DNA of 64,000 bases from positions 1 through 64,000 of IMG/VR virus record IMGVR_UViG_3300045988_141624; one strand, 5' to 3'. Below, piece after piece: positions 8,909-63,987 of the stretch; the first letter of the stretch is position 1, and each line of letters starts with the position of its first letter. Made by a program: the position numbers and the translations under genes. This DNA comes from a virus. The notes beneath the pieces are model-generated. The model saw nothing but the letters and a program-made list of their open reading frames with translations. It had not been told where the DNA came from and did no database searches.

Positions 8909-8936
8909 TTTATGTTTTCAAAACAAGCAATATTTT

Positions 8937-9266: not shown

Positions 9267-9269
9267 TTT

Positions 9270-9800: not shown

Positions 9801-9826
9801 TGTTTTTACCCTCTTTTTTATTTATT

Positions 9827-10123: not shown

Positions 10124-10148
10124 CCTTTTTTTATTTTTTATAAAATTT

Positions 10149-10364: not shown

Positions 10365-10408
10365 TTTTTAATACCTCCGTTTTTTGTTTGTTCCTCTGAA
10401 CACTTTTA

Positions 10409-10436
10409 ATTATAATGATTTTTTTGTTTTTGTCAA
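10409..10436 (-). promoter_or_regulatory. Consensus promoter (leftward) for the 10364-to-8410 cassette
   Basis: On the minus strand: TTGACA (10436-10431), a 16-nt spacer, then TATAAT (10414-10409). Confidence 0.6.
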
Positions 10437-10949: not shown

Positions 10950-11642
10950 ATGAAAATTGGTTTTGATTGTAAGTATGTTTATGTGGAGCCTTTGGGTGTG
11001 AGAGAGGTATATGCTTCTCCAGCGAGTGAGAAAAATGCGTTTTGCAATCTCTGTGATGAAGAATTGGTTTTATCTTATGAAAATTCTAAGTTTTCTTATA
11101 GAGAATCATATTTGGGAATATTGAAAATTGTAGATGTACCATTTGACTATATTTACATTTGTCCATTTTGTTATTATTTAAATGACTACATTAATAAACT
11201 TACAGCTTGGGGCAAAACAGGATTTCATAAATATAAATTATTTCTTCCTAGTTTTCTGTCTTTAATGTTGGCAAGTAATTTAGCCACCGAAGAAAACAAT
11301 TATAAAACTCTTAACGATACAATTATTCTAAACAATACAAAACAAACTCTTTGGAAAGAATTTTTGGACATTAAATCTTTGGAGGGAAAACAAAATCCTG
11401 AATTAATTAAACGTATTCTCGAGCAAAGGTTTGATGTTTACAGTCATAAAGTTGTTAAGCTTTTAGAAAAACCGCTGACATTTAGCGAATATTGCAAGAT
11501 GTTTTTTAAGTCGTTGTTTTATCAAATGATAGAAGAAAAAGAAGGGGTAAGCAAAGATAATAAAAAGAATTCAAACCAAGAGGAAGGCGAGAACGTTAAT
11601 AAATCTGAATTTGGAAATTTCAAATTGATTTCCGAAATTTGA
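10950..11642 (+). CDS. Hypothetical Cys-containing protein
   Basis: The ATG at 10950 follows AAGAGG. It contains CNLC ... CPFC pairs. Confidence 0.55.
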   Translation: MKIGFDCKYVYVEPLGVREVYASPASEKNAFCNLCDEELVLSYENSKFSYRESYLGILKIVDVPFDYIYICPFCYYLNDYINKLTAWGKTGFHKYKLFLPSFLSLMLASNLATEENNYKTLNDTIILNNTKQTLWKEFLDIKSLEGKQNPELIKRILEQRFDVYSHKVVKLLEKPLTFSEYCKMFFKSLFYQMIEEKEGVSKDNKKNSNQEEGENVNKSEFGNFKLISEI

Positions 11643-11727
11643 AATTTTAAATCGTAATTAAAAGACCAAAACCTACCCCATATTTATTTAATCCAAAACC
11701 ACCCCTATATTAGAAAGGAAGATTATA

Positions 11728-11973
11728 ATGCAAGTTTATCATGGTGGCGAATATCCAATGACAGTTTATGATGTAGTGTATAAGGATGACTTAATATATT
11801 TTCTTATGTACCTTGGTGAAAAATGGACTTTGGTTGACGCAAGAGAATGTACTGTTAAGCCTATTTGGATGCCTAGTTATGAAGAAGAAATGGGATTCGA
11901 TGAATCAGATAAAACACTTAGTAATAGAGATTTCATAGAGATAACTGAACAATTGGAAGAATCAGATTGGTAA
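11728..11973 (+). CDS. Hypothetical protein
   Basis: The ATG follows AAGGAAG. Confidence 0.55.
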   Translation: MQVYHGGEYPMTVYDVVYKDDLIYFLMYLGEKWTLVDARECTVKPIWMPSYEEEMGFDESDKTLSNRDFIEITEQLEESDW

Positions 11974-12007
11974 TTATGTAAAATATTATTTTTAAAAAGG
12001 AGGAATT

Positions 12008-12823
12008 ATGATGAAAAAATATACAAAAGAAGACTTTGAAACATTCAAACGAGACGAACGCGGATGGCTAATCTGCCCTAGTGGGGATTATACAGAGATT
12101 AAAAAGTTCCCAAAGAGGTGTAAATTTGATGGTGAAAGCATATTCAGCAATTGGAGCAGATTCAGCGAGGAATGTAGATTTGTCAGCTGGTGTACCTTTG
12201 GATACAGGTGTAGTTTTGGTGAGAAATGCAGATTTGATAACAGATGTAAATTTGGTTTTTGTAGTAGATTCAGGGCGAGATGTAGCTTCGGCGAGACGTG
12301 TGTATTTGAAGAGAATTGTAGTTTTGGAGCTTGTTGTAAATTCGGAAATAGCAATATATTTCATGAAGCATGTATTTTTGACCAAGGCTGCATATTTGGA
12401 AAATATTGTTTGTTTTATAAAAAAAGTGTCTTTGGTTCTTACTCGAAATTAGGAGACGGCTGCGTTGTTAAAGAAGAATGTAGGTTTGGAAGAGATTCTT
12501 CTTTTGGGCGGGGTATTATTTTTGGACATAATTGTAAATTTGGTCTTAATGGTTTTTTTGATAAGCATTGCATTTGGGGCGAAAATTGTCTTTTCAATTG
12601 GACACCATATCAAACTAATAAATCACAGAGGGAGAAACAAATGAATGAAGAATTACAAAGTGCTTTCAATATTGTTGTAAAATATGGTTTTTGTGGTGAA
12701 TGTCGTTATAATTTAGATTCCAGATATTGCGAGGGAACAATGTGTTATAGAGATATGAATCTAATTCGAGACGCTTTAGAGGCGTTTTCAGAAAAGGAGA
12801 GTAATGAAAATGAAAAACTGTGA
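12008..12823 (+). CDS. Hexapeptide-repeat (CxFGxx) protein, copy 1 of a duplicated module
   Basis: About 25 consecutive 6-residue units, for example CRFDNR CKFGF CSRFRAR CSFGET CVFEEN CSFGAC CKFGNS. The N-terminus, MMKKYTKEDFETFKRDERGWLICPSGDYTEIK, is shared with the 15920 product. Confidence 0.75.
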   Translation: MMKKYTKEDFETFKRDERGWLICPSGDYTEIKKFPKRCKFDGESIFSNWSRFSEECRFVSWCTFGYRCSFGEKCRFDNRCKFGFCSRFRARCSFGETCVFEENCSFGACCKFGNSNIFHEACIFDQGCIFGKYCLFYKKSVFGSYSKLGDGCVVKEECRFGRDSSFGRGIIFGHNCKFGLNGFFDKHCIWGENCLFNWTPYQTNKSQREKQMNEELQSAFNIVVKYGFCGECRYNLDSRYCEGTMCYRDMNLIRDALEAFSEKESNENEKL

Positions 12824-27831: not shown

Positions 27832-30800
27832 ATGTATTTTAACAATCATGTTCATGATGAATACAGTAATGCTGCTTTAGGTTTTCCCGATGTAGTCAAC
27901 AAAGTAGAAGATGTAATTCAAAAAGCTTATGACTTGGGATTAAGTGGTATTGCAATTACTAATCATGAATGTGTTTCCTCACATATTAAAGCATTACAAT
28001 ATTATGAGAAAATGGAAAAAGACAGACCTTTTAAAATTGCTTTGGGGAATGAAATTTATTTAATGGACGAAAGTGAGGACGAAGAAAACAGAACAGAAAA
28101 AAGAACAGTTTATCCTTATTATCATTTTATTTTAACAGCTTTAGACACCTTGGGCCATAAACAAATCAGAGAGCTTTCAACAAGAGCTTGGAAAAGAGCC
28201 TATTTCTCTAGGGGTTTAATGAGGACACCCACTTATTATAGTGATATAGAAGAGGTTGTTGGACAAGAAAAAGGCCATATTATTGCCTCGACCGCTTGTC
28301 TTGGAAGCTTTTTAGATAAGATGATTTTGCAATGGAAAAATGGGGATAATACAGCAAAATTAGCTATTCATAGCTTCATAACGTGGTGCATTGATACTTT
28401 TGGTAAAGATAATTTCTTTTTAGAAATTCAACCATGTTATGAAGATAATGTAGAACAAGTGACAGTTAATTCAGCAATGAAAGAATTATCTAAAGCATAC
28501 AAACTAGGAATCATTCCTACTACTGACGCTCATTATTTAACAAAAGACATGGCTTTTGTGCATAAAACCTATCTAAATTCTAAAGAGGGTGAGCGAGAAG
28601 TAGATAAATTTTATGCCATGACTTATCTAATGGACGAGGAAGAATTGAGAACGTTTCTCAAATTGCAATTTTCCATTAAAGAAATAGATGAAATGTACAA
28701 GAATACGTTGTTAATTTGGGATAGAATTGAAAAATATGATTTACAACACAATCCTATTATTCCTCAAATTCCCGAAGAGAAGTTACCTCAATTTAAAATC
28801 AGACATTTGTTTAAGGAATGGTATTCTAAATATCCTAATTTTGCTTTTTATAGTAACAACGAGAGAACACTCCATGAACAATATTTCTTTTATCAAATTG
28901 AAAAAGGATTTGAAAAAAAGGTTTGTAATAGTGTAAAACCTAAGAATATAGAACAATATATAGCAAGATTAGATGAAGAATTTGAACAATTTCGCTTAAT
29001 AAGTGAAGCATTGGGTACATCTATCCCCTGTTATTTTAGCTCTATGTCCCGAATAATAGATATAATATGGGACATTGGTAGTTTAGTTATGCCAGGGAGA
29101 GGTAGTGCGGGTGCATGTCTTTCTTGTTATTTATTGGATATTACACAAATAGACCCCGTTCCTTTTGGTGATTATATGCCGTTTTGGAGATTCCTTAAAT
29201 AATTTTTTATCCTAAATCATTAAGACATGGATAAAAAATTTAGGGCCTTATATTAGGAATGATATAAGTGGAGACTGTGAACTATCTAACCAATAGGTGT
29301 GAGAATGTAATTCTTGCTAACGAGGAAAGTCTAAGGATGAAAATCTATGATAATCTCGTGCCAAGCCCTTTGTCAAGGAAAGGTGTAACGACTAAGCAAG
29401 CTGAATGTGGTTACAGCTTTAGCGCAGTCTACCCCAACTGAAATAAGTGGGTAAAGAAATAGTCTATCCCGCTATGGAAACATAGCGGTAGTGAGAAACG
29501 TACAACGCGGCGTAGAACTTCCAGATTAATAACATAGTTTGGCTATATGGTGACATATAGAAAATAAAGTGGCTAACCAGTGAAAGTGCTGGGTGTGAGG
29601 AAAATCCTTGCTAACAGTGAAAACCTTGTTCATCCTGAATCGTGAACATGGCGATACTGTGCCAAGTTTTGTATTAAAAATACATTAAAGGTGCAACGAC
29701 TAAGCCCCGTAGGGTGAAACTCCCCGCGGTTAATGCCACTCTCTCCAATTGGAGATGAAGATATAGTCTAAACCGACTGTTTATTCAGTGTTAAAGTATT
29801 GGGAATAAATAACCAACGGTATAATTGATTGACACAGATTCAGAATCATCAAAAAAGAATGAAATTGTTCAGGGTGTTGTAGATTTCTTTGGTGAAGATA
29901 GGGTGTTAAGCATTGCAACATTTTCTGCCTTAACCAGTAAAACGGCAATAGAGAAAAGCTGTAAAGGCTTGGGAATTAATAATGATACAGCTAACTACAT
30001 TAAAGCTATGATACCTATTGAGCGTGGTTTTACTTGGAGCTTAAAAGATTGTTTTGAGGGTGATTTGGAAAAGCAAAGAAAACCAATTCAAACATTTATT
30101 AATGAAGTCAACAAATATCCTAAGCTAAAAGAATGTGCTTTGGCTTTAGAAGGATTGATAACAGGAAGAAGCACTCATGCAGCGGGCATCTTAATTGGGA
30201 ACGAACCTTATACCAATTTCATAGCTGCAATGCGATCTCCCAAAGGCGATTTATGTTCTTGCTATGACCTAATAGACGCTGAACACTGTGGGGAAATTAA
30301 ATTTGACTTGTTAAAAACCAATGCAACAGATAAAATTCACACAACGTTAGATTTGTTACTTAAAGACAATTTAATTGAATGGCAAGGAAGTCTAAAGAGC
30401 ACCTATGAAAAATATATTCATCCCGATGTATTAGATTATGAAAACCCTAAAATGTGGGATATAATTAAAAATATATATAGTGTTTTTCAATTTGATACAA
30501 ATGTCAGTGTCCGCGCTTTAAATGCTACTCATCCTAAAAGCGTTATGGATTTATCTGCAACAAACAACCTGTTAAGGCTTATGTCTCAACCAGGACAAGA
30601 ATCTCCCCTAGATAAATATGCACGTTTTAAAAACAATATTAATGAATGGTATAATGAAATGGAAAGCTATGGGCTTTCTAAAGATGAACAAAAATGCTTA
30701 GAGGAATATTTAATTGATTCTTATGGACTAGCAGACAGTCAAGAAAAAGTAATGCGTCTAAGTATGGATAAAAGAATAAGTGGTTATACATTAAAAGAGG

Positions 30801-32710
30801 CAAACAAACTTCGTAAAAGTATTGCGCGGAAATCACAGAAATTACAAGAAGAAGCTAAGCAACAATTTTTTGAATATGGAGAGAAATTAGGCACCAGAAA
30901 AGAATTTTTAAATTATGTATGGAATGTTATTTTTGGTGCGTCATTTGGCTATGTAGAAATGGTCATGATTTGTGAACCTTACCAGGGGTGTGCTGTTATT
31001 TAACAGTGCTAACGGTATCAGCTGAATAAGACTGTTGTTCAAGAGTTACAACTAGATAACAACGTTAAAAAAGACGAAGCAGCTGACTAAGAAAATCTAA
31101 GGTCTATGTAAAATAGATAGCTGACAATACCGTGCGGTTTCTTATGAGGTCGTGTAGAGACTATTCCGATAGGAAGTACACTAACTATTGGTACGTTGGT
31201 GGAAGTGCAAATCTATAACAAATTTTGTTATAAAGATATAGTCCGATGGATTAATATGAAAATTCATATGTTGTAGAAATACAAAAATCCACTCGATTCC
31301 TTCTCCCAAATTCATTCAACCTCTTATTCTATTATCGCCCTACAAGAATTAAATCTTAATTATTATTACCCCTCAGTCTATTGGAATTGTGCTTGTTTAA
31401 CAGTGGAAAGTCAATCAGACGATGACACAGATAAAAGAACAGCAATAGATTATGGCAAAATGGCTCGCAGTATTTACAAGATGAAACAACATGGTATTGA
31501 TGTTTTGCCTCCTTCTATCAACAAATCCAATATTTCTTTTACACCCAATAAAGAAAACAACACTATTTTGTTTGGATTAGGTGGTATTTCAGGGATAAAC
31601 AATGAAGCAGCTAGAGAAATAGTTAATAATCGTCCATATAGTTCTTTTGAAGATTTCTACAACAAAGTTCAAAAGAATAAAAATACGTTATTAAAAAATC
31701 AAAAAATTATAACTTTAATTAAATCTGGTTGTTTTGATGAGTTTGATACTAGCAGAACAAATATTATGAAACAATATTTTGCTTTAATGTATGAACCAAA
31801 AGAAGAGTTGACTTTGCAAAATATGAGCAAAATATTAGAGTATGATATTCCTGTTCCCGAAGAGCTATTAAACCCTTATTTGTTAAGTAAACAAATAAAA
31901 CAGAAAAAGAATTTCTATAAAAACGATGAAAAAGCTAAGAGTAAAAAACATTATAGAGTGCCACATGATTTACAAAATGATTTATTAATTATGTTCCCTG
32001 AATTAAAAGAAGATGTTGATTATTATTATGATAGTGACATAATGATAATTATTGATAAAGCTTTAGACAAACAAATGAAAAAGATTAATGAAAAAATTAA
32101 AGAGTATATTACACAGGATAAAGTAAAGGATGAGTTTAATTCTAGGGGTAGAGAGTTGTTATACCATGAGAACATAAAACAAGAAAATGAATTGCAATGG
32201 GCTTTTTCTTCCACGTCTTTTTATCCAAACAATGAACATGAATTAAATAACATTGATTGTGATAAATATAATATTATTGATTATAATCTTTTACCAGAGA
32301 ACCCTGAATTTGAAACTAAGTATTATGTTAAGAAAGATGGTGAAGAGGTTGTTTGGAACCAATATTATCTTTATAGAATTTGTGGTACAGTAACAAGTAA
32401 GGATAAAAATAAAAGGACAGTAGATATTTTGACTCCCACCAATGATGTGGTAACAATTCGTTTAAATGATGAAGTTTATACTTATTATGAACAAAAAATA
32501 TCTGAGGGCACAGATACAAATAAAACCGTAATTGATGATAGCTGGTTTACAAGAGGAAAAATGTTATGTGTTGTAGGATATAGACAAGGGGACGGGTTCA
32601 GAGGAAAAAGATATAGAAGCTCAATTTTCAAACATACAATTATGTTAATAGAAAAAGTAAATCAAGACGGTTCTTTAGAGTTAAGAACAGAAAGAAAAAT
32701 AAAAGACTAG
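27832..32710 (+). CDS. dnaE: DNA polymerase III alpha subunit (PHP plus polymerase core), interrupted by three group I introns. Exons: 27832-29195, 29496-29526, 29828-30950, 31296-32710.
   Basis: PHP motif HVHDEYS, plus GRGSAGACLSCYLLDITQIDP. Spliced joins restore FWRFL-NVQRGVELPD-IDTD and GY-SFSQIHS. The exons sum to 3933 nt, which is 1311 codons. Confidence 0.85.
29196..29495 (+). mobile_element. Group I intron (PolIII intron 1, no ORF)
   Basis: The 5' exon ends in U and the insert ends in G. Core-like strings ttgctaacgaggaaag, ctcgtgccaag, gtgtaacgactaagc and aaatagtct. It is a paralogue of the next intron. Confidence 0.75.
29527..29827 (+). mobile_element. Group I intron (PolIII intron 2, no ORF)
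   Basis: The exon end ccagaU can pair with the intron sequence gtttgg (P1-like). Core-like strings ttgctaacagtgaaaac, ctgtgccaag, gtgcaacgactaagc and gatatagtct. It ends in G. Confidence 0.75.
30951..31295 (+). mobile_element. Group I intron (PolIII intron 3, no ORF)
   Basis: It splits GY|SFSQIHS. It contains agatatagtccga. The 5' exon ends in U and the insert ends in G. Confidence 0.7.
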
Positions 32711-35398: not shown

Positions 35399-38300
35399 TT
35401 GTCAAAGTTATTGGAAAAATATCAAGAACAATATAAGCCTTATGTAAAGTTTATTGATTCTTATCGTAAAGCTTCCAATGCAGCTAGTGGTAGTGAAGTA
35501 GACTCTAACGCAAATGTAGAGAATAAAAACATTACCACTTTACAAGGAGAACTAAACAAAAAAGAAATTATTGGAACAAATCGCACTCTAATGATTGAAA
35601 AACTTACAGAACTGTATGGCGAAGAAACCGCAAAAGAATACATTCGTCAACTTGAGGCCCATGAAATTTATAAACATGATGAAACCAGTATTATGCCGTA
35701 CTGCGTTAGCATTACAATGTATCCTTTCTTATTCGATGGGCTAACCAACATCGGTGGTTTATCTACGGCACCCAACAATTTGGATTCTTTTTGTGGGAGC
35801 TTTGTTAATTTAGTATTTGCCATTGCTTCTCAATTCGCAGGAGCAGTAAGCACACCAGAGTTTCTAATGTATATGGATTATTTCATTAGAAAAGAATATG
35901 GAAATGATTATTATTTAAAACCTGATTCTGTAGTATCAGCCATTGGTAGAAAAAGAACTATTCATTCTGTTATTCATGATAAGTTCAGCCAAGTTGTTTA
36001 TTCATTAAATCAACCAGCTGCCGCAAGGAATTTTCAAAGCGTAAACTAAAATGCGCCTATATGTAGTAATAGATATAGCAAACTCCTTTAATTTCTGGGA
36101 AATCTTATTATAATTATAGTTTTATCATTCATAATAAGACAATCAGAAGCGAAGCCCTATAAAGGGAACGTTCAACGACCATTGCGAAAGCAAGTACACT
36201 ATAAGCGTTTGATAGTGGAAATGGGGAGTATCCTTTCAAAGGATAGTGATATGGTCTACTCTTTATGGTGACATAAAGCAGTTCATAAGAGAACGCATAC
36301 AACGTAGCGCATTGTATGGAATACAAGGGTTTTGGAATATTGCTTATTTCGACCAACCTTATTTTAACGGTATGTTTGAAGATTTTGTTTTTCCCGATGG
36401 TTCTGAACCTTGTTGGGATAGTGTGAATTGGCTCCAAAAAGACTTTATGAAATGGTTTAATGCAGAAAGATTAAAAACAGCTACATCGTTCTTATCTTTC
36501 CCTGTTGAAACTGTTAATCTTTTGGATAATGGGACAGATTATGTGGATAAAGAATGGAAAGATTTCACAGCACAAATGTGGGCAGAAGGACATTCATTCT
36601 TCTGTTATAGAAGCAATAGTGTTGACTCGTTGGCATCGTGTTGTAGGCTCAGAAACGAAATTCAAGAAAACACGTTCTCATTTACGTTAGGTGCCGGAGG
36701 TGTGTCTACAGGTTCTAAAGGCGTTATTACCATTAACATCAATAGATTGGTGCAAAATGTTTATAAAAAGAATCCTCACGCAACATTAAAAGATATTTCT
36801 AAAACTGTTAGAGAACAAATTCATAAAGTACATTGTTACTTAACAGCATTTAATGAAATTATAAAAGATAATTTTAAATCTAAAATGCTTCCTGTTTATG
36901 ATGCAGGATATATTGCTTTAGAAAAACAATATTTAAGTTTAGGTATGTAATTTAATGCCTTACATTGCTTTTCCAGTTATCGCTGGGGTACTAAGGAGTG
37001 CTAACGAGGAAACCTGACTACCATAAGGTAAAAGGCAATCTCGTGGGAAGGAAGTTTTTGTATGGAAATTTATATGATTCAAAATGATATTAATAATATG
37101 GTTTATATAGGACAGATAAATAATTCAAAACATAGGTTGAAGCAACATGTTTCAGCAGATTTATTAAAAAGACTGTTTTATTCATTGAAATATGAACAAG
37201 ATAAAACTATGACTCAAATCGCTAGAGAGTATAAAATTGACATAAGTCAACTGAATAAAATTAACCAAGGACGCGACCACAGGGTTGATTGGCAAACATA
37301 TCCTGTTAGAAAAGGCAAAGTATCCAATCCGTTATACAAACATGCTGAGGAAATAAGAAACTTGCTTAAAAACACAGATATTCCACAAAAAGACATAGCC
37401 AGAAAATTTAATGTTTCTGTTTCCTCGGTGCGTGCTATCAATAAGGGGAGCTATTATAGAGATAATAAACTATCTTATCCTTTAAGATATAATTATCAAT
37501 GCTATAATAGTGGAAGAACCGCTCTGTCTCCTAGTGAGGTTTGTGAAATAGAAGAGAAATTAAAAAACACTAATATTTCAATGCGCTCCATTGCTGCGGA
37601 ATACGAAATCGCATTGACAACTGTTACAAATTTAAATATTGGCTCAATAAAAAAATATCGTAAAGAATCATTAAATTATCCATTGCGGAAACTTTAACCT
37701 GTATCGACTATCCTCGCATAGAGGAGTAAAAAAACTATTGATACGTTTTTTGAAATGGCAATGGCACTATCAAGGGATAGTAATTAAGAAATAGTCAGTT
37801 CTATTAGAAATAATAGGTTAAACGATTAACGGTTTTCTTGAAGGGGCAGAATTTTTAGGCATTGAGATTTCACCCAATGAGGAATATTTTGCCTATGGTG
37901 AAGCCATTCTAAAACCAATCTACGAAGAAAACAAAAAAGATAAAACATCAGAGATTATGTTTAACACGGAGTTCGTGCCTGAAAAGAGTGGGCACTAAGT
38001 AGGATAATCCATAAACTACTTATAGGAAATTTTCTTTAATTGACTCGGAAATCCAGAGGTGGACAACGAGGGGCAAGTTTAAATACAGCCTGAACGACTA
38101 AATAAGAAAACTTCATAGGAAATTAAATGAAGGTGCAATAGTCTGAACTCATATACAACCTAACTAAAGTATGAGAAAGAAAGTCAGATGTACAGACATC
38201 TTAAAGAAGAACTTTCTTCGCCAAGCTATCTTGGTCATTAAAGTAACAGAATTGGCAGAAAATCTCGGTGTTAAAAATGCAAAATGGGATAGAGAAGATG

Positions 38301-41529: not shown

Positions 41530-42522
41530 TTATTTGACTTTGCTCCTATAGTTAGGCAAACAGAAACCACGAATAAAACGACCATTAATTTCCACATTTC
41601 GATAACCTACCGCGTCAGATTTATTTCCTTCTATGATTTTCATATTGTTTCCAGACACTTCAACAACGATACCAACGTGTTCAGGCCACCCAGTATCATC
41701 ACCTTTTCCATTGTCATCCCAATCATACATTAGAATATCACCAATTTGGGGAACATAAGCGTCATTTTCTTCCCAGCGACCAATCTTTTTGTACAACTCA
41801 ATCATTTTACCACAACTACATTCTGTTGGCATAATGTCGGTTAAACCGCATTGGATAGCCACAAAAGAAACAAAAGTAGCACACCAAGAACCCGTATATT
41901 TCATTCTATAGTTGCGTGCTAAAGGTTTATGCGCATTATATCCATCAATAATTACTTTATGACTTCCATCAGATTCTTTACAGCCTAAATATTTCTTAGC
42001 TTCATTAACCACCTTTTGACGCAAAGACATTTCAGTAGTTTTTGTAGAGCCACCAGAACTAGGTGTAGAGGGTTTTGCAGGAGAAACAGCTCCATCTAAT
42101 ACAACCCAAGTCTTAGCCCCACAAATACCATCAGCGGACAATCCTTTTGCTTTTTGAAAAGCAATACAAGCTGCTTTTGCTTTTTGTCCATAAATAGAAT
42201 CAATAGCACCACAATTAAACCCATGTTTGGTTACTTTGGTTTGAAATTCTTTAACATCCTCGCCTTTCATCATCGGAGAGGTTAGTTTTAGAGTGCGCCT
42301 TGTTTTAGTTTCCAACTTTCCCCATGTTTTAGAACCACAAATGCCGTCTGCACTTAGCCCAACAGACGCTTGAAATTTCTTGCATGCACTCACAGATTTT
42401 TTTCCATATTTTCCATCAATAGCACCACAACTAAACCCCTTGCTTGTAACCAACTTTTGAAAATCTGTTACATCAGACCCACTCATTAGAGGGGTAGTAA
42501 GTTTTAAAGTTTTTCTTGCCAT
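41530..42522 (-). CDS. Endolysin: two PG_binding_1 repeats plus a C-terminal CHAP/NlpC-P60-type cysteine peptidase domain
   Basis: Two repeats of the form G.DV..FQ..V...GF.CGAIDG.YG.K...A...FQ...GLSADGICG.KTW. The C-terminal domain has SWCATFV (Cys) and PEHVGIVV (His). Confidence 0.85.
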   Translation of the reverse strand: MARKTLKLTTPLMSGSDVTDFQKLVTSKGFSCGAIDGKYGKKSVSACKKFQASVGLSADGICGSKTWGKLETKTRRTLKLTSPMMKGEDVKEFQTKVTKHGFNCGAIDSIYGQKAKAACIAFQKAKGLSADGICGAKTWVVLDGAVSPAKPSTPSSGGSTKTTEMSLRQKVVNEAKKYLGCKESDGSHKVIIDGYNAHKPLARNYRMKYTGSWCATFVSFVAIQCGLTDIMPTECSCGKMIELYKKIGRWEENDAYVPQIGDILMYDWDDNGKGDDTGWPEHVGIVVEVSGNNMKIIEGNKSDAVGYRNVEINGRFIRGFCLPNYRSKVK

Positions 42523-53566: not shown

Positions 53567-56500
53567 TTAGCGTAGGCTCCCCACTTGAATAGCTGTTGAC
53601 ATAAAATTGTTTTTCAATGTATTTACAAAAGAACTTGCGTCTTTAACATTCGGTAGTACCAACTTTTCAAAATTAAACTGATTATTGGTGTCTCCACTTC
53701 CAGAATTATTATTTGCCCCCAACATGCTTAACCATTGTGACGGATGATATTGTCCAATTTCCATTAAATTTTGCGCCAATGTATGAGGAACAATACCAGA
53801 ACCACGACTCAAAGGTGCTAAAATATTCTGTTGTGACGGAATATATAATTCGCTACCATTTTCGTTAATATTTCCTATCATGTTTCTAGGAATATATGCA
53901 CTACCAGAAGCAAAGCCCTTGGCTGATAAAGCGCTTTGAGTTTTGCTACCAAACACACCATCAACAGATAAGCCAGAATCTTTTTGGAATTTCTTTAGCG
54001 CATTTACGGTTTGAGTTCCCATAACGCCATCGACCGCCAAGTTCCCATAACCCAAAGAATTTAAAGCGTTTTGCAAAGCCTTTACATTATCGCCTTTACT
54101 GCCTTTTTTCAGCGTTCCAGAAGATTTAGTTGATGAACTTCCTCCACCACTGCTTTTTCCAGGAGAAATGTAATTATCATCCAACTGCTGAAGAATAGAG
54201 TTATATTGACTAATGAAACTCTTTAAATTACCAAGTCTCTTTTCCCAATTCTTTTGTTCTTCATTTACACCAAATATCTGTTGAGCAATTAATCTCTTTT
54301 GGTTATTTTCATAAGAATCAGCAGCTTCTTGCCACAAATCCTTATAATCTTCCCAATATTGTATTTTCTCATCATATTTATCTTCGGAAGCTTGCTTTTG
54401 ATTTTGTAAATCCTCTAATTCTTTTTCATAAGCTTGTTTTCGTCTTACTTCATCTAAGTTCTTTTGAGCTTCATTTACAGCGCCTATGTCACTTTCATAA
54501 ACAAAGCCCTTTCCCTCACGATATATTCTAACTCGCGTGTTCTCAGCTTTAGCAAGACTCTCCAATGCTTCTTCTAATTCTAATTGCTTATCTAACTCTT
54601 CATTTTGCTTTTGCAACGCTTTTATTTTAGCATCCCAATACTCTTGCTCTTTCTTCTTTTGTTTTTCTAACGCTTTTATCTCTTTATCAGCTAAATCATT
54701 GATATAGTCTAAAGCGTCTTCGTAGTTTTCTTTTTGTCTTTGTAGCGCTTCTTTTGCTGCATCGGACGTTTGCTTAGAAGCAGAACTTGTTTTAGATTTA
54801 GACTTAGAGCTAGATTTTTTAGAAGATTTTTTACTAGAACTTTTTTTCTTTACACCAGGAGCAGACCAATTTTGAGCAATAGGCGAAACACCGTCAATTG
54901 TTCCGTCCCCACTTAAAATATCTCTGGTGTCTTGAGCATTATATACCACATCGCCTTTGTGTAGGTATCCTAATTCAGCTCCATGTTCACCCGCTATATA
55001 AGCATTTCTACCATGTTTATCTGTTACAAGCTCAGGCCCTTTTTCACCCAACCAAGATAATTCATTCTTGGGTGCACCGGTCGGAGGAGTGCCCGTCCAA
55101 CTACCTTTTACTTTTGATAAATAATTGTTTACAATATCGTCATAACTCGGGTTTCCTGCGCCTGGCCCCGTCACTTTTGTTTGTATCGTAACCGTTTTAA
55201 CAATGTTTGGCATTTTGCGCACATCGTTAAATTGGTCTTGAACAGTAGTTAAATCTTTTTGAGCGTCCTCAGAATCAACATCAACATGCAATAAAGCTCT
55301 AAGCTCAACATCAGACGCCTCTTTAGCTTTGGCTATTTCCTCATCAATTTTTTCCAACGGAGTATTACCGTTTTCATCGCTTACATCAGTTTTAATATTT
55401 ACTTTCTTAATTATCTCACTGATTTCAGAGCTTGTAAAGCCCATTTTTGATAAGAAAGCCACCAAATCAGATAATTTAGCAGTCGCTTGACCCGTACTAG
55501 CGTCAACACTAATAATCTTTTGTTGAGTTAATAAATCCGTCCAAGCCTGAGTAGAAGATTGTAAATCTAATATTTCAACCCCAGCTGCTTTAGCTTGTTC
55601 TATAAAATTATAAAACTCAACATCGGTCATACCCATGGCTGTTTGAGCATCAGCACCAAGCATTAATAATTTTTTACCATTATCATCTACAACTAGACCA
55701 AGTTCACTAGCTTTTGACATCAATGAATCAAAATCGTATTCTATAACCCCGCCTGTTTGTTTGTAAGCTTCCAACAAAGCAGAAAGAGCTTCTCGTGGTA
55801 TGCCTAGTGCTTGTGCTAATTTTTCAGCATTTTTAATCATAATATTGCCTGCGGCGTCAACACTAGCAATATCAGGAGTTACCCCAGCGCCTGAAATAAG
55901 GTCACCTAGCTTAGAATAATCTCCATCTTTAATAAACTTATAGAAGCTTTGGTATCTTTCTCTCGCAGTTTTCTCAGCTAAATCCCAATTACCATTGAAA
56001 TCAGCATACCAATTCTCACCAAAGAATATGCTCATTAACTCTTGGGTCTGAGCACCACGATTTCCTTCAGCAAGATTTTTCATCAACTGCTCATAACCTT
56101 TTGACATATTAGCTAAATGAGCGGTTTCAGGTTCTATTTTTAAAGCAGCTGTTACTCTATCAGAAATGCCTTGTGCACCAGCTTCAATTTCATCGCCTTC
56201 TGCCTTTAAGGCATTGCGCATTTGGGCTAAAGAATCTTTAAACTTAGGAGCATATTCAGACTCGGCTAAATTTAATAAAATTTTCCTAGATTCTTCTATG
56301 CTCTTGTTACCAATCGAAAAATCAGAACTATTAATAGTTTTTACAAGATTATCATAGTCTTGAGCATTTTTAATTTCAGCTGCGCCCATTTGAGTAAGAG
56401 CTTCAATACCCTCTTTTTTAATGGACTCAATATAAGCGTCTTGGGCTGAATTTACTTTATCTTGAGCCTCTTGCAGACTTGACAACTTGGTAGAAACAGC

Positions 56501-59500
56501 ACCCAGTGCATCTGATACATCCATTCCTGCTCCTTCGGCTTGTCTAAGCTTATTGAGCATTATAGAAAGTTTAGATATTTGTTCTTCAACAGGGGCGTTA
56601 TTGTCCCACATTTTGCCCCACTCGTCACCAAAGACTTGTCTAAATTGCCTTAATGCGGAACCCGTTGCTTCCACAGACGCAGTTTGAGCTTCCTTTAACC
56701 CCTTCTCAGCTTCTACTATTTGAGCTTGTAAATATGTACTATTGTTTGCTAATCTCTTACTATAAATTCCACCAAGAATTTGAGATTGCTCTTCATACTT
56801 CCCATTAACTAAATCTATACCAGCTGCCTCATCGCCAATTGAATCTACAATCTTGCCTTGTAATTCACTCAACTGTTTGTTTATAGCAACTCTTTCTTCA
56901 TCACTCTCAGCGTTTTTCTTTTGAGCTGCTAATTCTCTGTATTGAGCTAATTGCTCACCTAGAGTGGTAGTTAATTCACTTTCCTTTTGGCGCAATTCTT
57001 CAGCTTTTTGTTGCTGCTCAGCTCTAACTTGACTAGCATGAGCAGAAAGAGCAGAAAAAATACTAATACCAGCGCTTAAAATGCCTAGGAATCCACCGAC
57101 CCCCATAACCCTTGAGAAAGCACCTACGCCACTTGCTAAAGAACTAAACGCACCCTCGCCAACAGAACGTAAAGAACTAAATGCAGAAGTCGCTGCTTTT
57201 ATAGCTACTGGAATGTTTTTAAACGGTTCTATTAAACTAGTAAAACTATTTTTTAAATTGTTTACTGCATTAGGAAATTGATTTCCTATAAAAATTCCCG
57301 CAAATGTTACCAAAACGGGTATAAAAGTTTGTAGTCCACCCAAAGCATTTGCCACTTCTAAAATAGATGTAGCAAAACTAAGTATAGTTTTTACAGCGCC
57401 TGAACTAATACCTTTTGTAAAGAAGGCTTCAAACTGAGCCGTAAGCCCCGCTATTTTACCTTCAATAGAATCAAGATATGCCGCATTTTCTCTTGAGGCA
57501 GAACCAAAAGAGTTCATAGCGACTTCACTTGCACCAACCGCGCTATCAAAGTTTGAAAGCACACTGTTTACAACGTCTCATTTGTATTAAGTTAATATAA
57601 TTAACCGTAAATAAATTTAGCTAACTCCTTTTTATAAGAACCATCTCTAAACGTCCAATATGGCAATCTCAATAAAGGAATATTATTATTTTTACAATAT
57701 TTATTTTTTATTTCATCTCTTTTTTTCTGATTTAATAAACACTCTTCATCTGTTTTTTGCGTGGTTGTAAAATGAAATATGCCGTCCACTTCTATTAGTT
57801 TTAAATTAGAATCTTGTTTAATACAATAATCAAACCTTAATTTTCTTTTATAAACACAATCATCAAAAGAAAATTCTTTAATATATTTTATATTATTATT
57901 GTTCAACCAATCTTCTACCAAAAACATTATAGAAGAAGTAGCTTTTGTACAAACCGTACATCTTGTTTGTCCTCTTAAAAAAGAAGCTAAACTTACTGTA
58001 AAAAATTTCCCACAACCACACTTCATAATTAAATGTTTTTTATTTGTATCAATTTCTTTTAAACAACACGACAGCTTATTTCTAACAATATAGTGTTTAA
58101 TATTATAAATAAAATAAGGATTATCCCATTTGAAAAACCGAGTTTTTAATTTGTTATACCTGTTTAAAGATAAATAACTTATAACACTTCTATACCCTTC
58201 CTTGTTTTCAAACGGCAATAACTCTTTAATATTATTATACTTATCAAACAATGGAATTAATTCCAAACTTTCAAATGTCTTTTTAACGTATTCTATCTTG
58301 TGTTGCTTATATTCATGAGCTCTTTTTATCGAGCATTTTTGACAAGTACAACATTCACTTTCTAAAAAATGATACAAAGTCTTTGGATAAATTTCCCCAC
58401 ACTTCTCACAAACAAAAAACAGAGGGCTTTTATTTGCGTTTATATATTCTTCACTAATCAAAGACGTATTTTTATGCATTATTTTAATATAATGTCGTAT
58501 ATTTTCTATGGTGTAAGGATTATACTTAGAATATCTTTGAAACTTATAAGTATTACTCATTTTTATTGCTTCCTTTGATAATAAATACTTATAACCTTCA
58601 CCATCTACACAAAAAATTTTATCCTTTATTCTTCGGACGTTTACATATCCATTCTTTAATAATTCTTTAATTTCTTCCATTTTATTTCCTTGCTAAATTT
58701 ATTCACTCTTATACTTTCATATAAGATTAGACTATATTTTTATCACAATATAAAATCGTAATAACTGGCTCTTTCCACATAAATACTATGTGTACCCTAC
58801 TTGCTTCGTCTATTAAAATAGCTTATTCTATTATATAATAGTTACATTTATTAATTCTTATAAAAACTTATTAATTCTTATAGAAACTAATTGCTTTTGG
58901 TAGTCGTTGAACCTTATTCTATATTTCAATAGAATCTTGGCTGCGGATTGACCATATATCTTTACGCTTTTTACCATACTCTAGTTAGTTACTCTAAACC
59001 ATTGAAACATTGCTGTCTCAACTTGGTACGCAAAGCTTTAGGCTTCCATGTCTTTTACACAGAAATAGTAAACCACTCTATCTTCCCCGCAATTTAGCCA
59101 GTACGGGCTTATGTTGCAAAACCTGGGTTTTCTTGTTTGTTAGCTTTTGCTTTCACAAAAGAACGGATTATATTTTAATATTGTTCAAAACAATACCGCA
59201 GACTCTTTCCATATATACATATGTACTCTACTCGCTTCGTCCATTTATATGGCTTATTCTATCATACGATAGTTACATTTGTCAACTTAAAGTCAACTGC
59301 TTTTGATAATCTCTGAACCTTATTCTATATTTCAATAGAATCTTGGCTGCGGATTGACCATATATCCTTATACTTTTTACTATATCTTAGTTAATTACTC
59401 CAAGCCCCTAATATATCACTATATTAAGTTAGTATATAAGGCTCTTAGGCATCCATGTTAAACACAGATAAAAGTGATGAACCTTTTCTTTCCCGCAATT

Positions 59501-60864
59501 AAGTCTGTCCGTGGCTCAACCCTAGAGTCAACCACCTATCAAAGAGGCATAATAATTTTTAGTATTCTGGTCTAACGTATCCCAAATACCAGATAATTCC
59601 GAAAAAATTTCAAACGTAGATTTTAACTGTCCACCAGTACCCATTAGGGTTATACCGATTTTGTTAAAATCTTTTTCCATAGAGGCTAATAAGTCAAGGT
59701 TTTGTTCCCCTGAATCATCCATAGCCTGTAAATTCAATGTAATGGTTCTTAAACCACGAGCAACACGACTTGCTTGCCCAGGCATCATCTCGGTGCCTGC
59801 TGTTAGTACATTATATTAATAAAGAATCGTTACTTCTTTATGAATTGCACAAAACAATTCCTTACACTTTCATGTAAGATTAGATTATATCTTGTTTATA
59901 ATAAAATATAAACTGCCCCGTTTCCCCGCACTTGCGAGTATGCTATATTACAATAGACTTACTAATCGTTGAACTTTTTTCCATTGTCTATGGAAACTTA
60001 GCTGCGGATAACCCAATATTTATTTTTGTTACTATACCAAAAACATTACTTTTTGCCATCATAATATTACTATTATAATTTAGTAAATAAATCTCTAAGG
60101 GCTTCCCCGTCAATTAGAGGCATTTTACTAGACCAACTATTTTAGCCTAATGTTTGTTCCATGCTATTCCCAGCTTGCGCCATCGTAGCGGCAACTTTAG
60201 GAACAGCCGTGGCTAAATCACCTGAAGATACTGCAAACTTATTTGCTACTTCGTTTACAGCGTCTACAATATGCTCTGAATCTGCTGCTGTAATATTAAA
60301 TGCTTTCATTTGAGAAATCAAGAAAGCAGCAGCGTCACCAGCACTTACTTCTTCATCAGCAACATTCTGGAACATAGAAGCAACTTCAGCCAATTGAAGA
60401 GATTCTACATCATTAAAACCAGATTTAGTAAATTCAGTTGCAGCTTCAATTACTTGTGTAGCCGTTCTCGCAACCTTTTCACCAACCTGTAAAGCTCTAT
60501 TGCCAAATTGCTCTAGTTCAGCACCCGTCATGTCACTGACTTTTCTTAATTCTGTCATAGCTGCGTCTAATTCAAAAACAGAAGACACACCTTTTCTAAA
60601 AGAATTGTAAACAGAATCAATTATTTTTGTACCAATTTGCCATCTTGAGTTCTTATCAATAATACTGCTCAAGGACTGACTAGTTTTGTCCATGGCTTTA
60701 TTCATTTTATTGAAACCAGAAGTGGCAGATTTAGTACCAGCGTCACCAAATTTAAAACCCTTAAAGTTTGAAGCAAGCTTATTAAGCTGTCCTTGTAAAT
60801 TGTTTTCATCTAAAAGGGCTTTAACGTTAATACTATAATTATTACTTCCTGGCAAATAAACCAC
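53567..60864 (-). CDS. Tail tape-measure protein interrupted by three group I introns. Proposed exons: 60864-60150, 59808-59531, 59153-59121, 59559-53567 corrected to 57559-53567.
   Basis: The N-terminal fragment has a TP901-type TMP core (MTELRKVSDMTGAELEQFG...). The fragment 59788-59528 continues it (AGTEMMPGQASRVARGLR). The large C-terminal ORF is coiled-coil rich and carries a PG_binding_1 domain. The proposed exons sum to 5019 nt, which is 1673 codons. Junctions are uncertain by a few nt. Confidence 0.75.
57560..59120 (-). mobile_element. Group I intron (TMP intron 3) with an endonuclease ORF in its 3' region
   Basis: Core strings aattgcggggaag, atccgcagccaagattc, ggttcaacgactacc and aatatagtct precede ORF 58680-57601. 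It is a paralogue of intron 2. Confidence 0.65.
57601..58680 (-). CDS. Intron-encoded putative homing endonuclease: repeated zinc-ribbon modules plus a C-terminal PD-(D/E)XK (Vsr/DUF559-like) domain
   Basis: Several CxxC...CxxC pairs (CEKC..CCTCQKC, CGC..CTVC). The C-terminus reads RFDYCI...LIEVDGIFH...K..D, then PLLRLPYW. Confidence 0.5.
   Translation of the reverse strand: MEEIKELLKNGYVNVRRIKDKIFCVDGEGYKYLLSKEAIKMSNTYKFQRYSKYNPYTIENIRHYIKIMHKNTSLISEEYINANKSPLFFVCEKCGEIYPKTLYHFLESECCTCQKCSIKRAHEYKQHKIEYVKKTFESLELIPLFDKYNNIKELLPFENKEGYRSVISYLSLNRYNKLKTRFFKWDNPYFIYNIKHYIVRNKLSCCLKEIDTNKKHLIMKCGCGKFFTVSLASFLRGQTRCTVCTKATSSIMFLVEDWLNNNNIKYIKEFSFDDCVYKRKLRFDYCIKQDSNLKLIEVDGIFHFTTTQKTDEECLLNQKKRDEIKNKYCKNNNIPLLRLPYWTFRDGSYKKELAKFIYG
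59154..59530 (-). mobile_element. Group I intron (TMP intron 2, no ORF)
   Basis: The exon end gtggU can pair with the intron sequence gccac (P1-like). Core strings aattgcgggaaag, atccgcagccaag and atataatcc. It ends ..ttgtG. Confidence 0.65.
59809..60149 (-). mobile_element. Group I intron (TMP intron 1, no ORF)
   Basis: Minus-strand core strings aattgacggggaag, atccgcagctaag, ttcaacgatta and gatataatct. An alternative in-frame 5' splice site lies at 60144. Confidence 0.7.
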
Positions 60865-60882: not shown

Positions 60883-61422
60883 TTATTTCTTTTTCAAATT
60901 CCCACTAACCCTATATTTTTTCATTGTTGAAGCGGCGATTAAAATAGAATCAGAAATATCATCATCATTTTTAGAAGAACCAGGAGACACAAAAATTAAA
61001 TTCAGATTAAACATCTGATTGGCCAACTTAATAGAGTTTTCTTTTAATTTATCCCTCTTTTGGTCAGCTCTGTCCCCACTAAATATCCCAATATTTTTCC
61101 TCCAAGTAGAAACAGGAATAAAATCTATCATTAAATCAGGATAATCTTTTTTAAACAACAACAAAGACCCCTGTACAGCCCCTAATTGCACCAAAGTTTT
61201 CTTCCCTTTTTGAGAAAATAAGGGCACATCTTCTACTACTAATCTATCTGGACGATATTGTTTAATTACATCATTTAACTGTGTAAAAATATCTACTATT
61301 CTTTCACGCCAATCTTCATGTTTACGCTTTGGCACAATTTTACCATAAGCCAATAATTCATCATTAAAAAAAATGCTCCAACCAGTACAATTGGTTGAAG
61401 CATCTACACCCATAATTATCAT
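60883..61422 (-). CDS. ruvC: RuvC-like Holliday junction resolvase
   Basis: MGVDASTNCTGWSIF (first Asp), LVVEDVPLF (Glu) and DDISDSILIA (Asp pair). Confidence 0.75.
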   Translation of the reverse strand: MIIMGVDASTNCTGWSIFFNDELLAYGKIVPKRKHEDWRERIVDIFTQLNDVIKQYRPDRLVVEDVPLFSQKGKKTLVQLGAVQGSLLLFKKDYPDLMIDFIPVSTWRKNIGIFSGDRADQKRDKLKENSIKLANQMFNLNLIFVSPGSSKNDDDISDSILIAASTMKKYRVSGNLKKK

Positions 61423-62387: not shown

Positions 62388-62422
62388 ATGTAATGCGGGA
62401 AAATCCCGCTGTTTATATTGAC

Positions 62423-62452
62423 ATTATACTAATTTTCTGTTTAAATGTCAAT
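62423..62452 (-). promoter_or_regulatory. Leftward promoter inside the late region, followed by a small hairpin
   Basis: On the minus strand: TTGACA (62452-62447), an 18-nt spacer, then TATAAT (62428-62423). A hairpin gcggga/tcccgc lies at 62395-62409. Confidence 0.5.
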
Positions 62453-62456: not shown

Positions 62457-62849
62457 TTATTTCGTATTGGCAATAATAGCCTCTACTGTATTTCTTACCC
62501 AAGCATCATAGTCTGCTACGGTTGATTTAATAGCATTTTTAATTTCAGTGCTTGCAATCTGTTCAAACGCATTTTTGGTAATCTCAAAAGCCTGTTGTTG
62601 TTCTTCAATATCAAACTTACCATCAGCTTTTAAAGATTTAACATAGGTTTCAGAAGTTGTTACAACAATATCTTCTAGCATAGAATAAGCACGACTTAAA
62701 TATGTATCCACCGTTTCATTTTCAGTCTTACTCTTTAGCCAATTTGTTGCTTTCTTGACCCCATAAACAATCAAAGCAGACACCAATGGAACCGTAACAG
62801 TAATAATTGTTTGTAGCGCAGTCATAATAACATCATTAAAACTTCCCAT
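62457..62849 (-). CDS. Putative holin (LL-H-family-like: a single N-terminal TM helix plus a long helical tail)
   Basis: TM helix VIMTALQTIITVTVPLVSALIVYGV, then a charged helical C-terminus ending ..VEAIIANTK. Confidence 0.45.
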   Translation of the reverse strand: MGSFNDVIMTALQTIITVTVPLVSALIVYGVKKATNWLKSKTENETVDTYLSRAYSMLEDIVVTTSETYVKSLKADGKFDIEEQQQAFEITKNAFEQIASTEIKNAIKSTVADYDAWVRNTVEAIIANTK

Positions 62850-62895
62850 AACATAGCCTCCTGTTAAAATTATTATTACTTAACAACTAGTCCTT

Positions 62896-63279
62896 TTAAA
62901 GTGTTGATACACTCTTTACATAGTAGAAAACAAAAGCCCCAAACAACACAATGGTAATAAAATTCTTTTTCAAAAATCCCAAAATATCAAATTTACCCTT
63001 TTCATCCACTTCTTCTACTTCATTCTCTATCCTCATTAAATTCTCTTCCATTTTTTTAACTACTTCTCGGTTATGCTCTACGTCTTTTATATTTTGTTCC
63101 AACAAATAATTAGTTTTCATCATTGTTTTATTTAATTCGCTCAACATATTATTGTTGTTTTTTACCATTGTTGTTAGATTTGTTATTTGAACCTCTGTTT
63201 TCGCTAAACTTGTCTCGGCTTTCCCCAATCTCTTTTCCAAATTTCGATAATCGTTTTTTATATCTGTAATCCCATCCAT
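62896..63279 (-). CDS. Coiled-coil protein with a C-terminal TM anchor (XhlA-like lysis accessory?)
   Basis: A long heptad-like N-terminus and the C-terminal ITIVLFGAFVFYYV. Its start overlaps the end of the MazF-like gene by 22 nt. Confidence 0.4.
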   Translation of the reverse strand: MDGITDIKNDYRNLEKRLGKAETSLAKTEVQITNLTTMVKNNNNMLSELNKTMMKTNYLLEQNIKDVEHNREVVKKMEENLMRIENEVEEVDEKGKFDILGFLKKNFITIVLFGAFVFYYVKSVSTL

Positions 63280-63656
63280 CCTCTTCCCCTCCCCTTTTTA
63301 TATTTATTATCAAAAATGCCTAGTGCTTTCTTCATTCTGTATTCAATTCTTATCATATCTTTCGGCTCTATCTCTCCTAAATACTGTAATAATTGTCTTT
63401 CTTCCACTGGCATTATTTGTTCTGTTAAAATTGTATTAGATTCCTTCCACAAAAAAGGATATTTATTAACCTCTAAACTATAATGAGTCGGAAGCCATGT
63501 CTTTTGTTTGCTTGTTAAAGGGACACACAAGAACACCGTGCTATAGTGACAACTATAATTATTACCCACTATTAAAACTGGGCGCACACCAAACTGTATA
63601 CTCCCCACTCTTTTCCCTAAGTCAGCTAAATAAATACCTCGCCTCTTAATCAACAT
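63258..63656 (-). CDS. mazF: MazF/EndoA (PemK) family endoribonuclease toxin homologue
   Basis: It aligns end to end with B. subtilis EndoA: KRRGIYLADLGKRVGSIQFGVRPVLIV against [34 protein letters not shown] against LPTHVEI, and TILTEQIMPVEERQL against VILLEQIRTIDKQRL. Confidence 0.8.
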   Translation of the reverse strand: MLIKRRGIYLADLGKRVGSIQFGVRPVLIVGNNYSCHYSTVFLCVPLTSKQKTWLPTHYSLEVNKYPFLWKESNTILTEQIMPVEERQLLQYLGEIEPKDMIRIEYRMKKALGIFDNKYKKGRGRGWMGLQI

Positions 63657-63657
63657 T

Positions 63658-63987
63658 TTATAATTTTTCCTTTTTTACATAAAACTCTCCGCTTTTACGT
63701 CTTATACCTATTTTAACATAATCAGGGACAATATCATAAGGGTTCGCCACAGCAATAACCCTATTTTCATAATCAACGTACAACTTCCCCTTTTTCTCAA
63801 AGCGAACATTGCAATATCCTTCAGGTATTTCTTTTTTTGTCCTTAGCGTACAATTATCTTGTGAATTAGTTGGAATCACTTTGTTTTGAGTTCTACAAAA
63901 TCTTGAAAATGGACAAATGTCATTAGACTTTTTGCAAAATAAATACAATCTACCATTTTCATCTTTATAATAAACATAAGGACACAT
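63658..63987 (-). CDS. Cys-rich hypothetical protein, translationally coupled to the MazF-like gene
   Basis: The junction reads TAAAATG (a 1-nt gap). It has six Cys. It has no MazE/AbrB or RHH features. Confidence 0.55.
   Translation of the reverse strand: MCPYVYYKDENGRLYLFCKKSNDICPFSRFCRTQNKVIPTNSQDNCTLRTKKEIPEGYCNVRFEKKGKLYVDYENRVIAVANPYDIVPDYVKIGIRRKSGEFYVKKEKL

Follow-up and report, generated by a model that had tools for sequence, protein, structure and literature searches.

Gene organization of the locus

The subject of this report is a gene for a predicted endoribonuclease of the MazF/PemK family, located near the end of a 64,000-nucleotide stretch of viral DNA (positions 1 to 64,000 of the IMG/VR record IMGVR_UViG_3300045988_141624), the whole of which is referred to here as the window. 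The gene is the second in a block of four on the minus strand, read in the order Cys-rich protein, MazF, coiled-coil protein with a C-terminal membrane helix, and holin-like protein (Table 1); the first and the third are called below the Cys gene and the coiled-coil/transmembrane (TM) gene. The four open reading frames (ORFs) had been delimited in an earlier note made from the sequence alone, and all of them are present on that strand. The junctions described in the same note are also legible in the sequence: the stop codon of the Cys gene and the start codon of the MazF gene are separated by one nucleotide (TAAAATG), and the MazF and coiled-coil/TM genes overlap by 22 nt. The ribosome-binding region of the coiled-coil/TM gene, as read from the sequence, encodes the last ~17 residues of MazF.

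The block is flanked by the gene of the tail tube (YomU_Tube, just past the end of the window) and by the tape-measure gene, so that MazF lies inside the tail gene string, within the late operon to which the earlier note had assigned it. The same MazF protein, residue for residue, occurs on a human-gut metagenome scaffold of 85 kb (L001), which extends the window. Upstream of the Cys gene, besides the tube gene, structural genes of the SPbeta type (YomW, YomX, YonB and YonD) are found. This position in the tail operon is unusual but evolutionarily stable. The reading preferred here, to which about an even chance of being right is given, is that the gene encodes a lone MazF/PemK-family endoribonuclease, predicted as such from its sequence, which works without a dedicated antitoxin and is an old but dispensable accessory gene of its phage family.

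Identity and conservation of the MazF protein

The MazF product is matched by Pfam PemK_toxin (PF02452) over profile positions 1-108 of 109, with an E-value of 7.8e-16 and 58.7 bits (gathering score 23.1), and by the profile of PHROG 1936, 'MazF-like growth inhibitor', with an E-value of 3.3e-20. Moreover, the solved EndoA/MazF chains of B. subtilis and B. anthracis (PDB entries 4HKE, 7BXY, 4ME7, 4MDX and 1NE8) match its residues 1-116 with E-values of 3e-17 to 1e-14, and the protein carries both the GVRPVLIV motif, which includes Arg25, and the VPLTSK motif, which includes Thr48. The homology with EndoA/MazF over the whole length, as claimed from the sequence alone, is thus confirmed. The further description as a 'bona fide' MazF stands as far as family membership is concerned, and has to be qualified since the Glu of EndoA position 20 (E24 of E. 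coli MazF) is an Ile in this protein.

The best characterized residues of the family are otherwise kept. In the B. subtilis enzyme (BsMazF), toxicity requires Arg25 and Thr48, and RNA contacts are made by Gly18 and Pro26 (PMC8634880); these four are present in the window MazF and are invariant or nearly so among the phage homologues, and alignments show the same for His58, Glu79 and Gln80. EndoA/MazF (YdcE) of B. subtilis and B. anthracis/B. cereus is a close known counterpart, alignable over residues 1-116 at ~33-38% identity, with Arg25, Thr48, Gly18, Pro26, the His and the Glu-Gln of the EQI motif all in common. The differences are that the window locus has no upstream MazE (ribbon-helix-helix, RHH) gene, that Glu20, Gly22 and Arg81 (window position 82) are replaced by Ile, Phe and Met, respectively, and that the protein is phage-borne, encoded in a tail operon and extended by a basic C-terminal tail of 17 amino acids.

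A word-indexed protein search for MazF gave 7 relatives. The ratio of nonsynonymous to synonymous substitution rates (dN/dS), calculated against three relatives, is 0.05-0.15, which is comparable to that of the tube gene, and the MazF gene is under purifying selection. Furthermore, the matrix of pairwise MazF identities correlates with that of the tube proteins (r = 0.88); since the divergence of MazF tracks the divergence of the tube, a long vertical residence with occasional loss is indicated, and not repeated insertion.

Lone MazF-like genes are an already recognised class of phage genes, represented by PHROG 1936, with matches in 97 phage records and in varied contexts. In the Lactobacillus phages Lenus and SA-C12, the Heliusvirales gut phages and phage TR-TP1, the MazF gene is likewise without a recognisable antitoxin gene; the difference is that those genes lie by replication, methylase, lysis or integrase genes, and not in the interval between tube and tape measure. 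Such genes are common in phages and essentially unstudied, and the one described here is well defined and stable, and belongs to a family with cultured members (PMBT24 and CB473P1).

The search for an antitoxin and the Cys-rich protein

An antitoxin for MazF was sought in several ways. The comparison of 49 small ORFs of the window with Pfam gave no antitoxin-type family; one of these small ORFs has a weak match to DUF433 (E 0.002). No MazE homologue was found by tblastn with MazE queries, and the helix motif shared by MazE, AimX and YosL (M-x3-Y-x-E-M) has no strict match in the six frames of the window. Tandem repeats of the type III ToxI kind are absent from positions 8500-12500 of scaffold L001, where only short repeats at chance level occur. 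Of the features of a type II toxin-antitoxin (TA) system of the MazEF/PemIK type, neither a gene of a known antitoxin family (MazE/AbrB, RHH, PemI, Phd and similar) beside MazF nor a toxin and partner kept together across relatives was found, and the locus does not reveal a new type of toxin-antitoxin system.

The protein encoded immediately upstream of MazF has five invariant Cys residues in its N-terminal domain (C2, C18, C25, C31 and C46), followed by a C-terminal domain that forms a small beta-barrel in the AlphaFold2 model, with a predicted local distance difference test score (pLDDT) of ~90 in this part and below 60 in the N-terminal domain. The family comprises 242 representative clusters, all of them small stand-alone proteins. 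No Pfam family and no PDB match were obtained for it by sequence or profile search; a fold search with the model returned weak matches of the oligonucleotide-binding (OB)/S1-like kind from the PDB (E above 0.2), and from BFVD uncharacterised phage homologues only. The member found in the window has a basic C-terminus, and its initiator is its sole Met. Some other members (L033 7001-7543; P0019-P0023 and P0049) bear a strongly acidic C-terminal extension of ~70 residues with a Lys/Arg-rich end, and in L033 this acidic-tailed variant is encoded immediately upstream of MazF.

Distribution of the MazF gene among related phages

A DNA search of 50,697 phage records gave no close relative of the window. 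In terms of proteins, the tail module is colinear with that of PMBT24 and CB473P1, two cultured phages of Enterocloster bolteae, with the order tube, Cys-rich protein, ..., MazF, coiled-coil/TM protein, holin, chaperone-like protein, YomN, RuvC and tape measure. The PMBT24 protein (WDQ45535.1), like the homologous ones of CB473P1 and CB457P1, is ~37-39% identical to the window MazF; the GenBank records of PMBT24 and CB473P1 already label the syntenic gene 'mRNA interferase', and the paper on PMBT24 does not mention it. PMBT24 differs from the window in having the canonical Glu20/Arg pair, an extra gene for a 148-amino-acid protein (p148) and a sigma-70 consensus promoter between the Cys gene and MazF, and a holin of another family. 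The order Cys gene, MazF, coiled-coil/TM gene and holin gene, the conservation of which had been proposed as a check, does recur, both in the cultured phages of Enterocloster and in numerous contigs from metagenomes. Genome and metagenome scans for the Cys-rich family mostly re-sampled the same clades.

Among the distinct lineages sampled, about half have a MazF gene at the locus. The window clade (L007, L039-41 and L077), the clade E2 (L011-22), L067, L033/34 and L063 have it directly behind the Cys gene. In the clade of PMBT24 and CB473P1 (E1), the gene for p148, a zinc-ribbon protein, lies between the Cys gene and MazF, and in MT838326.1 MazF comes after a 119-amino-acid ORF and the coiled-coil/TM gene. 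The upstream neighbour of MazF can thus be the Cys gene, the p148 gene or the coiled-coil/TM gene; the downstream neighbour varies as well, being the coiled-coil/TM gene, a 58-amino-acid ORF, the gene of a polytopic membrane protein or a gene like that of the 161-amino-acid acidic protein of the window. In L077, a relative with 54% identity, the genes of two membrane proteins, one polytopic and the other of the AgrB family (PF04647), are inserted between MazF and the coiled-coil/TM gene (5357-6416).

Conversely, six lineages have a Cys gene and neither MazF nor a remnant of it at the locus: L065/66, L035/L064, L036, the TR-TP1 clade and two G1 clades (L070-76). The tube protein of L065/66 is 73% identical to that of PMBT24, which places this lineage among the MazF carriers; its Cys gene, hairpin, coiled-coil/TM gene and holin gene are present, and MazF is absent without a remnant. 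In the clade of the Thomasclavelia phage TR-TP1, the tail module contains the N-terminal Cys domain only, and MazF lies 66 kb away beside an integrase gene. The coiled-coil/TM gene occurs in most relatives, including L065, L035, L064 and L073-75, which lack MazF. Sister phages with and without MazF constitute a natural comparison for studies of its role.

The Cys gene comes right after the tube gene in every relative recovered, with or without MazF. Since it is present regardless of MazF, it is taken to be one of the core genes of the tail module, with its own function, beside which MazF has lodged as an accessory; judging from gene order, the Cys-rich protein is not a dedicated partner of MazF. 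Two ideas of the earlier note therefore part ways. Its view that the six-Cys protein does not look like an antitoxin holds, there being neither a canonical MazE nor an antitoxin-like fold; its suggestion that MazF is coupled to this protein as a novel neutraliser does not, because the Cys gene is found in the six lineages without MazF and the neighbours of MazF vary.

Transcription of the MazF gene

On its late strand, the window has a single perfect sigma-70 consensus site, which lies just downstream of the holin-like gene (Table 1) and is kept in the close relatives L007, L039 and L040. No comparable site precedes the Cys or the MazF gene in the window, and nearly every near-consensus sigma-70 site (13 across the window, against 1.6 expected) belongs to the early (+) strand. 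In three clades, there is a hairpin behind the tube gene. In the window, the transcript of MazF probably arises by read-through from the tube unit and covers the Cys gene as well.

A different arrangement is found in clade E1, where a predicted sigma-70 consensus promoter with an extended -10 element (12 of 12 consensus positions in CB473P1 and 11 of 12 in PMBT24) separates the Cys gene from the p148-MazF unit, preceded in CB473P1 by a strong hairpin. MazF of the PMBT24 clade is accordingly predicted to have its own promoter. The p148 protein (L004 9744-10249 in PMBT24; L003 10056-10560 in CB473P1) combines a zinc ribbon at its C-terminus with an acidic/aromatic tail (…EEAVWYFDAWLNL). Its gene, placed under a consensus promoter and directly upstream of MazF, gives a layout more TA-like than anything in the window. 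No Pfam match was obtained for p148, and tblastn found no homologue of it in the window.

Possible functions of the phage MazF

According to the preferred reading, MazF would be carried between the tail-tube and tape-measure genes in a family of siphophages of gut Firmicutes with genomes of ~85-100 kb, and in the window it would be co-transcribed and translationally coupled with the preceding Cys-rich gene. The phage would produce MazF during lytic growth, and the MazF dimer would bind and cut single-stranded RNA of the infected cell, an activity that may serve host shut-off or RNA turnover. As the killing of the host costs a lytic phage nothing, an antitoxin would be unneeded, and the existence of MazF-less relatives without a remnant of the gene implies that MazF itself is dispensable.

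Several observations weigh against this reading. The Cys and MazF genes are directly adjacent in six of the seven MazF-carrying lineages, with gaps of -35 to +83 nt, and a functional link between them may exist. In the window protein, Glu20 of the beta1-beta2 loop has become Ile and the co-varying basic partner that follows the EQI motif has become Met82. E20 is a key residue of MazF-Da; in E. coli MazF, the E24A change at the equivalent position abolishes RNA cleavage with retention of MazE binding (PMC3924284), and in S. aureus PemK, in which this Glu pairs with Arg84, E20A lowers the activity by 40-60% (PMC8887465). Furthermore, neither UACAU nor ACA nor any other 5-mer is depleted on the sense strands (on the late strand, UACAU occurs 32 times against 21.8 expected), so that an active EndoA-like enzyme would cut the phage mRNAs too; the motif counts give no sign of self-protection, and would be uninformative if the specificity of the enzyme differs. 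Finally, the AlphaFold2 model of MazF, built from 7 sequences, has a pLDDT of 42 and is unusable.

The replacement at positions 20 and 82 follows a pattern. Position 20 is Ile or Val throughout the window clade, down to 54% identity, as well as in the MazF proteins of L068, MT838326.1 and TR-TP1. Moreover, positions 20 and 82 co-vary in all 25 aligned sequences, which include phage and cellular MazFs: the pair is E/R or E/K in the canonical proteins, I/M, V/M, I/I, V/V or I/T in the window group, T/Q in Lactobacillus phages and K/E, a swap of charges, in Heliusvirales phages. On these alignments, a loop latch seems to have been remodelled with compensation, and not to have decayed. With Ile/Met in place of the Glu20/Arg pair, this MazF may be a weaker enzyme than EndoA or one with a different tuning, and the level and specificity of its RNase activity are uncertain. 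A variant of the Glu20/Arg pair conserved in this way could show the weight of the pair for activity.

The most interesting alternative left by this replacement is that of a toxin mimic in counter-defence, in which a weak or dead Ile20/Met82 MazF would soak up host MazE or form inactive heterodimers with host MazF. It is considered rather unlikely. The RNase-inactive E24A protein of E. coli still titrates MazE in vivo (PMC3924284), and non-canonical binders of MazF do exist in phages: AimX and YosL of the SPbeta family (SPbeta and phi3T) bind host MazF through a MazE-like helix and inactivate it, which permits lytic growth (PMC10769878). The tail genes of these phages share the Pfam families YomU, YomW, YomX and YomN with the window; the difference is that AimX and YosL are antitoxin mimics acting on the host toxin by means of the M-x3-Y-x-E-M helix, a motif absent from the window. 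The fixation of Ile or Val at position 20 would also suit a mimic, but Arg25, Thr48, Gly18, Pro26, His58, Glu79 and Gln80 are invariant in the same proteins, as expected if RNA is still bound or cut, the paired change resembles structural compensation and not loss of function, and sister clades retain the canonical pair at the same locus. In addition, the titration of MazE would free host MazF, and the phage shows no avoidance of UACAU. The broader proposal that the Ile20/Met82 MazF is a mimic which disarms host MazEF, or that the Cys-rich protein with its five Cys and beta-barrel doubles as a new inhibitor of MazF, is judged unlikely; if true, a mimic MazF would represent a counter-defence principle distinct from the antitoxin mimics of the SPbeta phages. 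A new type II pair, with the Cys-rich protein as the antitoxin of MazF, is quite improbable. The one-nucleotide spacing in the window, the adjacency or overlap of both genes in the window clade (including L041 and L077), E2, L067, L033/34 and L063, the long acidic tail of the L033 type, which could mimic RNA, and the lack of any other candidate among the 49 small ORFs and the tblastn results speak for it; against it stand the full-length Cys-rich proteins of the six MazF-less lineages and the spread of the family over its 242 clusters, the promoter and extra gene (in CB473P1 also the hairpin) that intervene in clade E1, the two genes that intervene in MT838326.1, the distant MazF and truncated Cys protein of the TR-TP1 clade, and the absence of any resemblance to antitoxin folds in a protein whose C-terminus, in the window, is basic and not acidic.

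The remaining alternatives concern the use of the enzyme rather than its partner. MazF could by itself exclude co-infecting phages or defend against them, in the manner of the MazF-like 'Sma' system of phage-inducible chromosomal islands (PICI). Single-protein MazF-like antiphage systems have been reported on phage satellites (PMC12948488, a review), and accessory defence genes typically have a patchy presence among close relatives, as MazF has. PMBT24, however, is described as virulent (PMC11035940), the gene sits in a structural operon and not in a lysogeny or moron region, and its vertical inheritance is unlike that of fast-moving defence cargo, which makes a role in competition between phages a distinctly poor prospect. 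A role in lysis, by which MazF, the coiled-coil/TM protein and the holin would schedule or reinforce lysis, is very improbable. It is suggested by the contiguity of MazF with the coiled-coil/TM and holin genes in four clades, by the conserved position of the holin gene in spite of the different holin families, and by unrelated phages in which MazF lies by lysis genes, namely SA-C12 (a gene annotated 'lysozyme') and TR-TP1 (near the endolysin gene). Nevertheless, L065 has the coiled-coil/TM and holin genes without MazF and the G1b clade has the coiled-coil/TM gene only, L033 has MazF without either gene, MazF and the coiled-coil/TM gene of L077 have two membrane-protein genes between them, the sampled Heliusvirales phages carry MazF in the replication module, and the endolysin of the window is encoded 20 kb away. 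MazF and the holin are associated by position alone, with nothing that would link MazF to lysis by mechanism.

Neighbouring genes and introns

The features of the locus and the group I introns of the window are collected in Table 1.

Table 1. Positions in the window of the MazF locus features and of the group I introns
Feature	Position	Strand	Basis or remarks
Cys-rich protein, 109 aa, six Cys	63658-63987	(-)	ORF; invariant Cys; AlphaFold2
MazF/PemK-family protein, 132 aa	63258-63656	(-)	ORF; Pfam, PHROG and PDB matches; alignments
Coiled-coil protein with C-terminal membrane helix (residues ~99-125), 127 aa	62896-63279	(-)	ORF, hydropathy; overlaps MazF by 22 nt
Holin-like protein, 130 aa, charged C-terminal domain	62457-62849	(-)	PHROG 13712 'holin', 5.9e-22 (residues 4-130)
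Sigma-70 consensus promoter, perfect (TTGACA, 17 nt, TATAAT)	62423-62451	(-)	Predicted; just downstream of holin-like gene
GC-rich hairpin GCGGGA-TTT-TCCCGC	62395-62409	(-)	Between the 62423-62451 promoter and the next gene
Acidic protein, 161 aa	61902-62387	(-)	Just upstream of YomN-like gene in all relatives (homologues p143, p146)
YomN-family protein, 155 aa	61432-61899	(-)	PF27376 in precomputed annotation; conserved in relatives
RuvC-like resolvase	60883-61422	(-)	Pfam RuvC 9.2e-8, PHROG 159 1e-16; immediately upstream of tape-measure gene
Tape-measure gene, first exon	60142-60864	(-)	PHROG tape-measure best 2.7e-40; colinear with PMBT24 tape measure
Group I intron	59861-60212	(-)	Rfam RF00028, 49 bits
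Group I intron	58893-59098	(-)	Rfam RF00028, 28 bits
Group I intron	36033-36278	(+)	Rfam RF00028, 83.7 bits
Group I intron	29535-29788	(+)	Rfam RF00028, 52.7 bits
Group I intron	29223-29487	(+)	Rfam RF00028, 62.5 bits

The holin-like protein has a single N-terminal membrane helix (residues 10-28). It had been described as a holin of the LL-H type, of which the holin assignment is sustained by the PHROG 13712 match and the membrane helix, and the family assignment is not, the match to Pfam Holin_LLH (PF09682) staying below the cut-off (18.3 bits against 24.9; E 0.0032) and covering residues 13-48 only. In the Enterocloster-phage clades, the holin slot is filled by an unrelated Phage_holin_5_2 gene, and this presence of a different holin family at the same slot speaks for a holin role of the position. 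The sole endolysin-like gene found, with two PG_binding_1 domains and a CHAP domain, is at the far end of the late operon (41530-42522, minus strand), ~20 kb downstream of the holin-like gene. For the coiled-coil/TM protein, membership of the XhlA family was considered in view of a similar architecture beside a holin, and was not supported; Pfam gave generic coiled-coil matches only, all below the cut-off.

Further along the tail operon, the 161-amino-acid acidic protein has no Pfam or PHROG family match, and its position suggests a tail-assembly chaperone. The RuvC-like gene is kept at the flank of the tape-measure gene in nearly all the relatives sampled, an odd site for a recombination nuclease.

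Three genes are interrupted by group I introns: nrdD, the PolIII-alpha gene, which is split into the ORFs 27832-29202, 29825-31003 and 31403-32710, and the tape-measure gene, with exons at 60142-60864, 59528-59788 and 53567-57562. About 100 nt of a tape-measure intron match unannotated DNA of the Staphylococcus phage OPT-SA02 and the Enterocloster phage CB457P1. Inside the second tape-measure gap lies a 359-amino-acid ORF (57601-58680, minus strand) without a Pfam match, which may encode an intron-borne homing endonuclease. Outside the window, comparison with the capsid protein of PMBT24 shows the major capsid gene of scaffold L001 to be divided into two parts (2882-3148 and 3543-4397), and the gap of ~400 nt between them is probably another intron. 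Finally, the early region on the plus strand of the window contains genes for a tyrosine recombinase (Phage_integrase and SAM-like domains), a C5 DNA methylase (1254-2219), a RecD-like helicase, DnaB, RecJ, a dUTPase and a dCMP deaminase.

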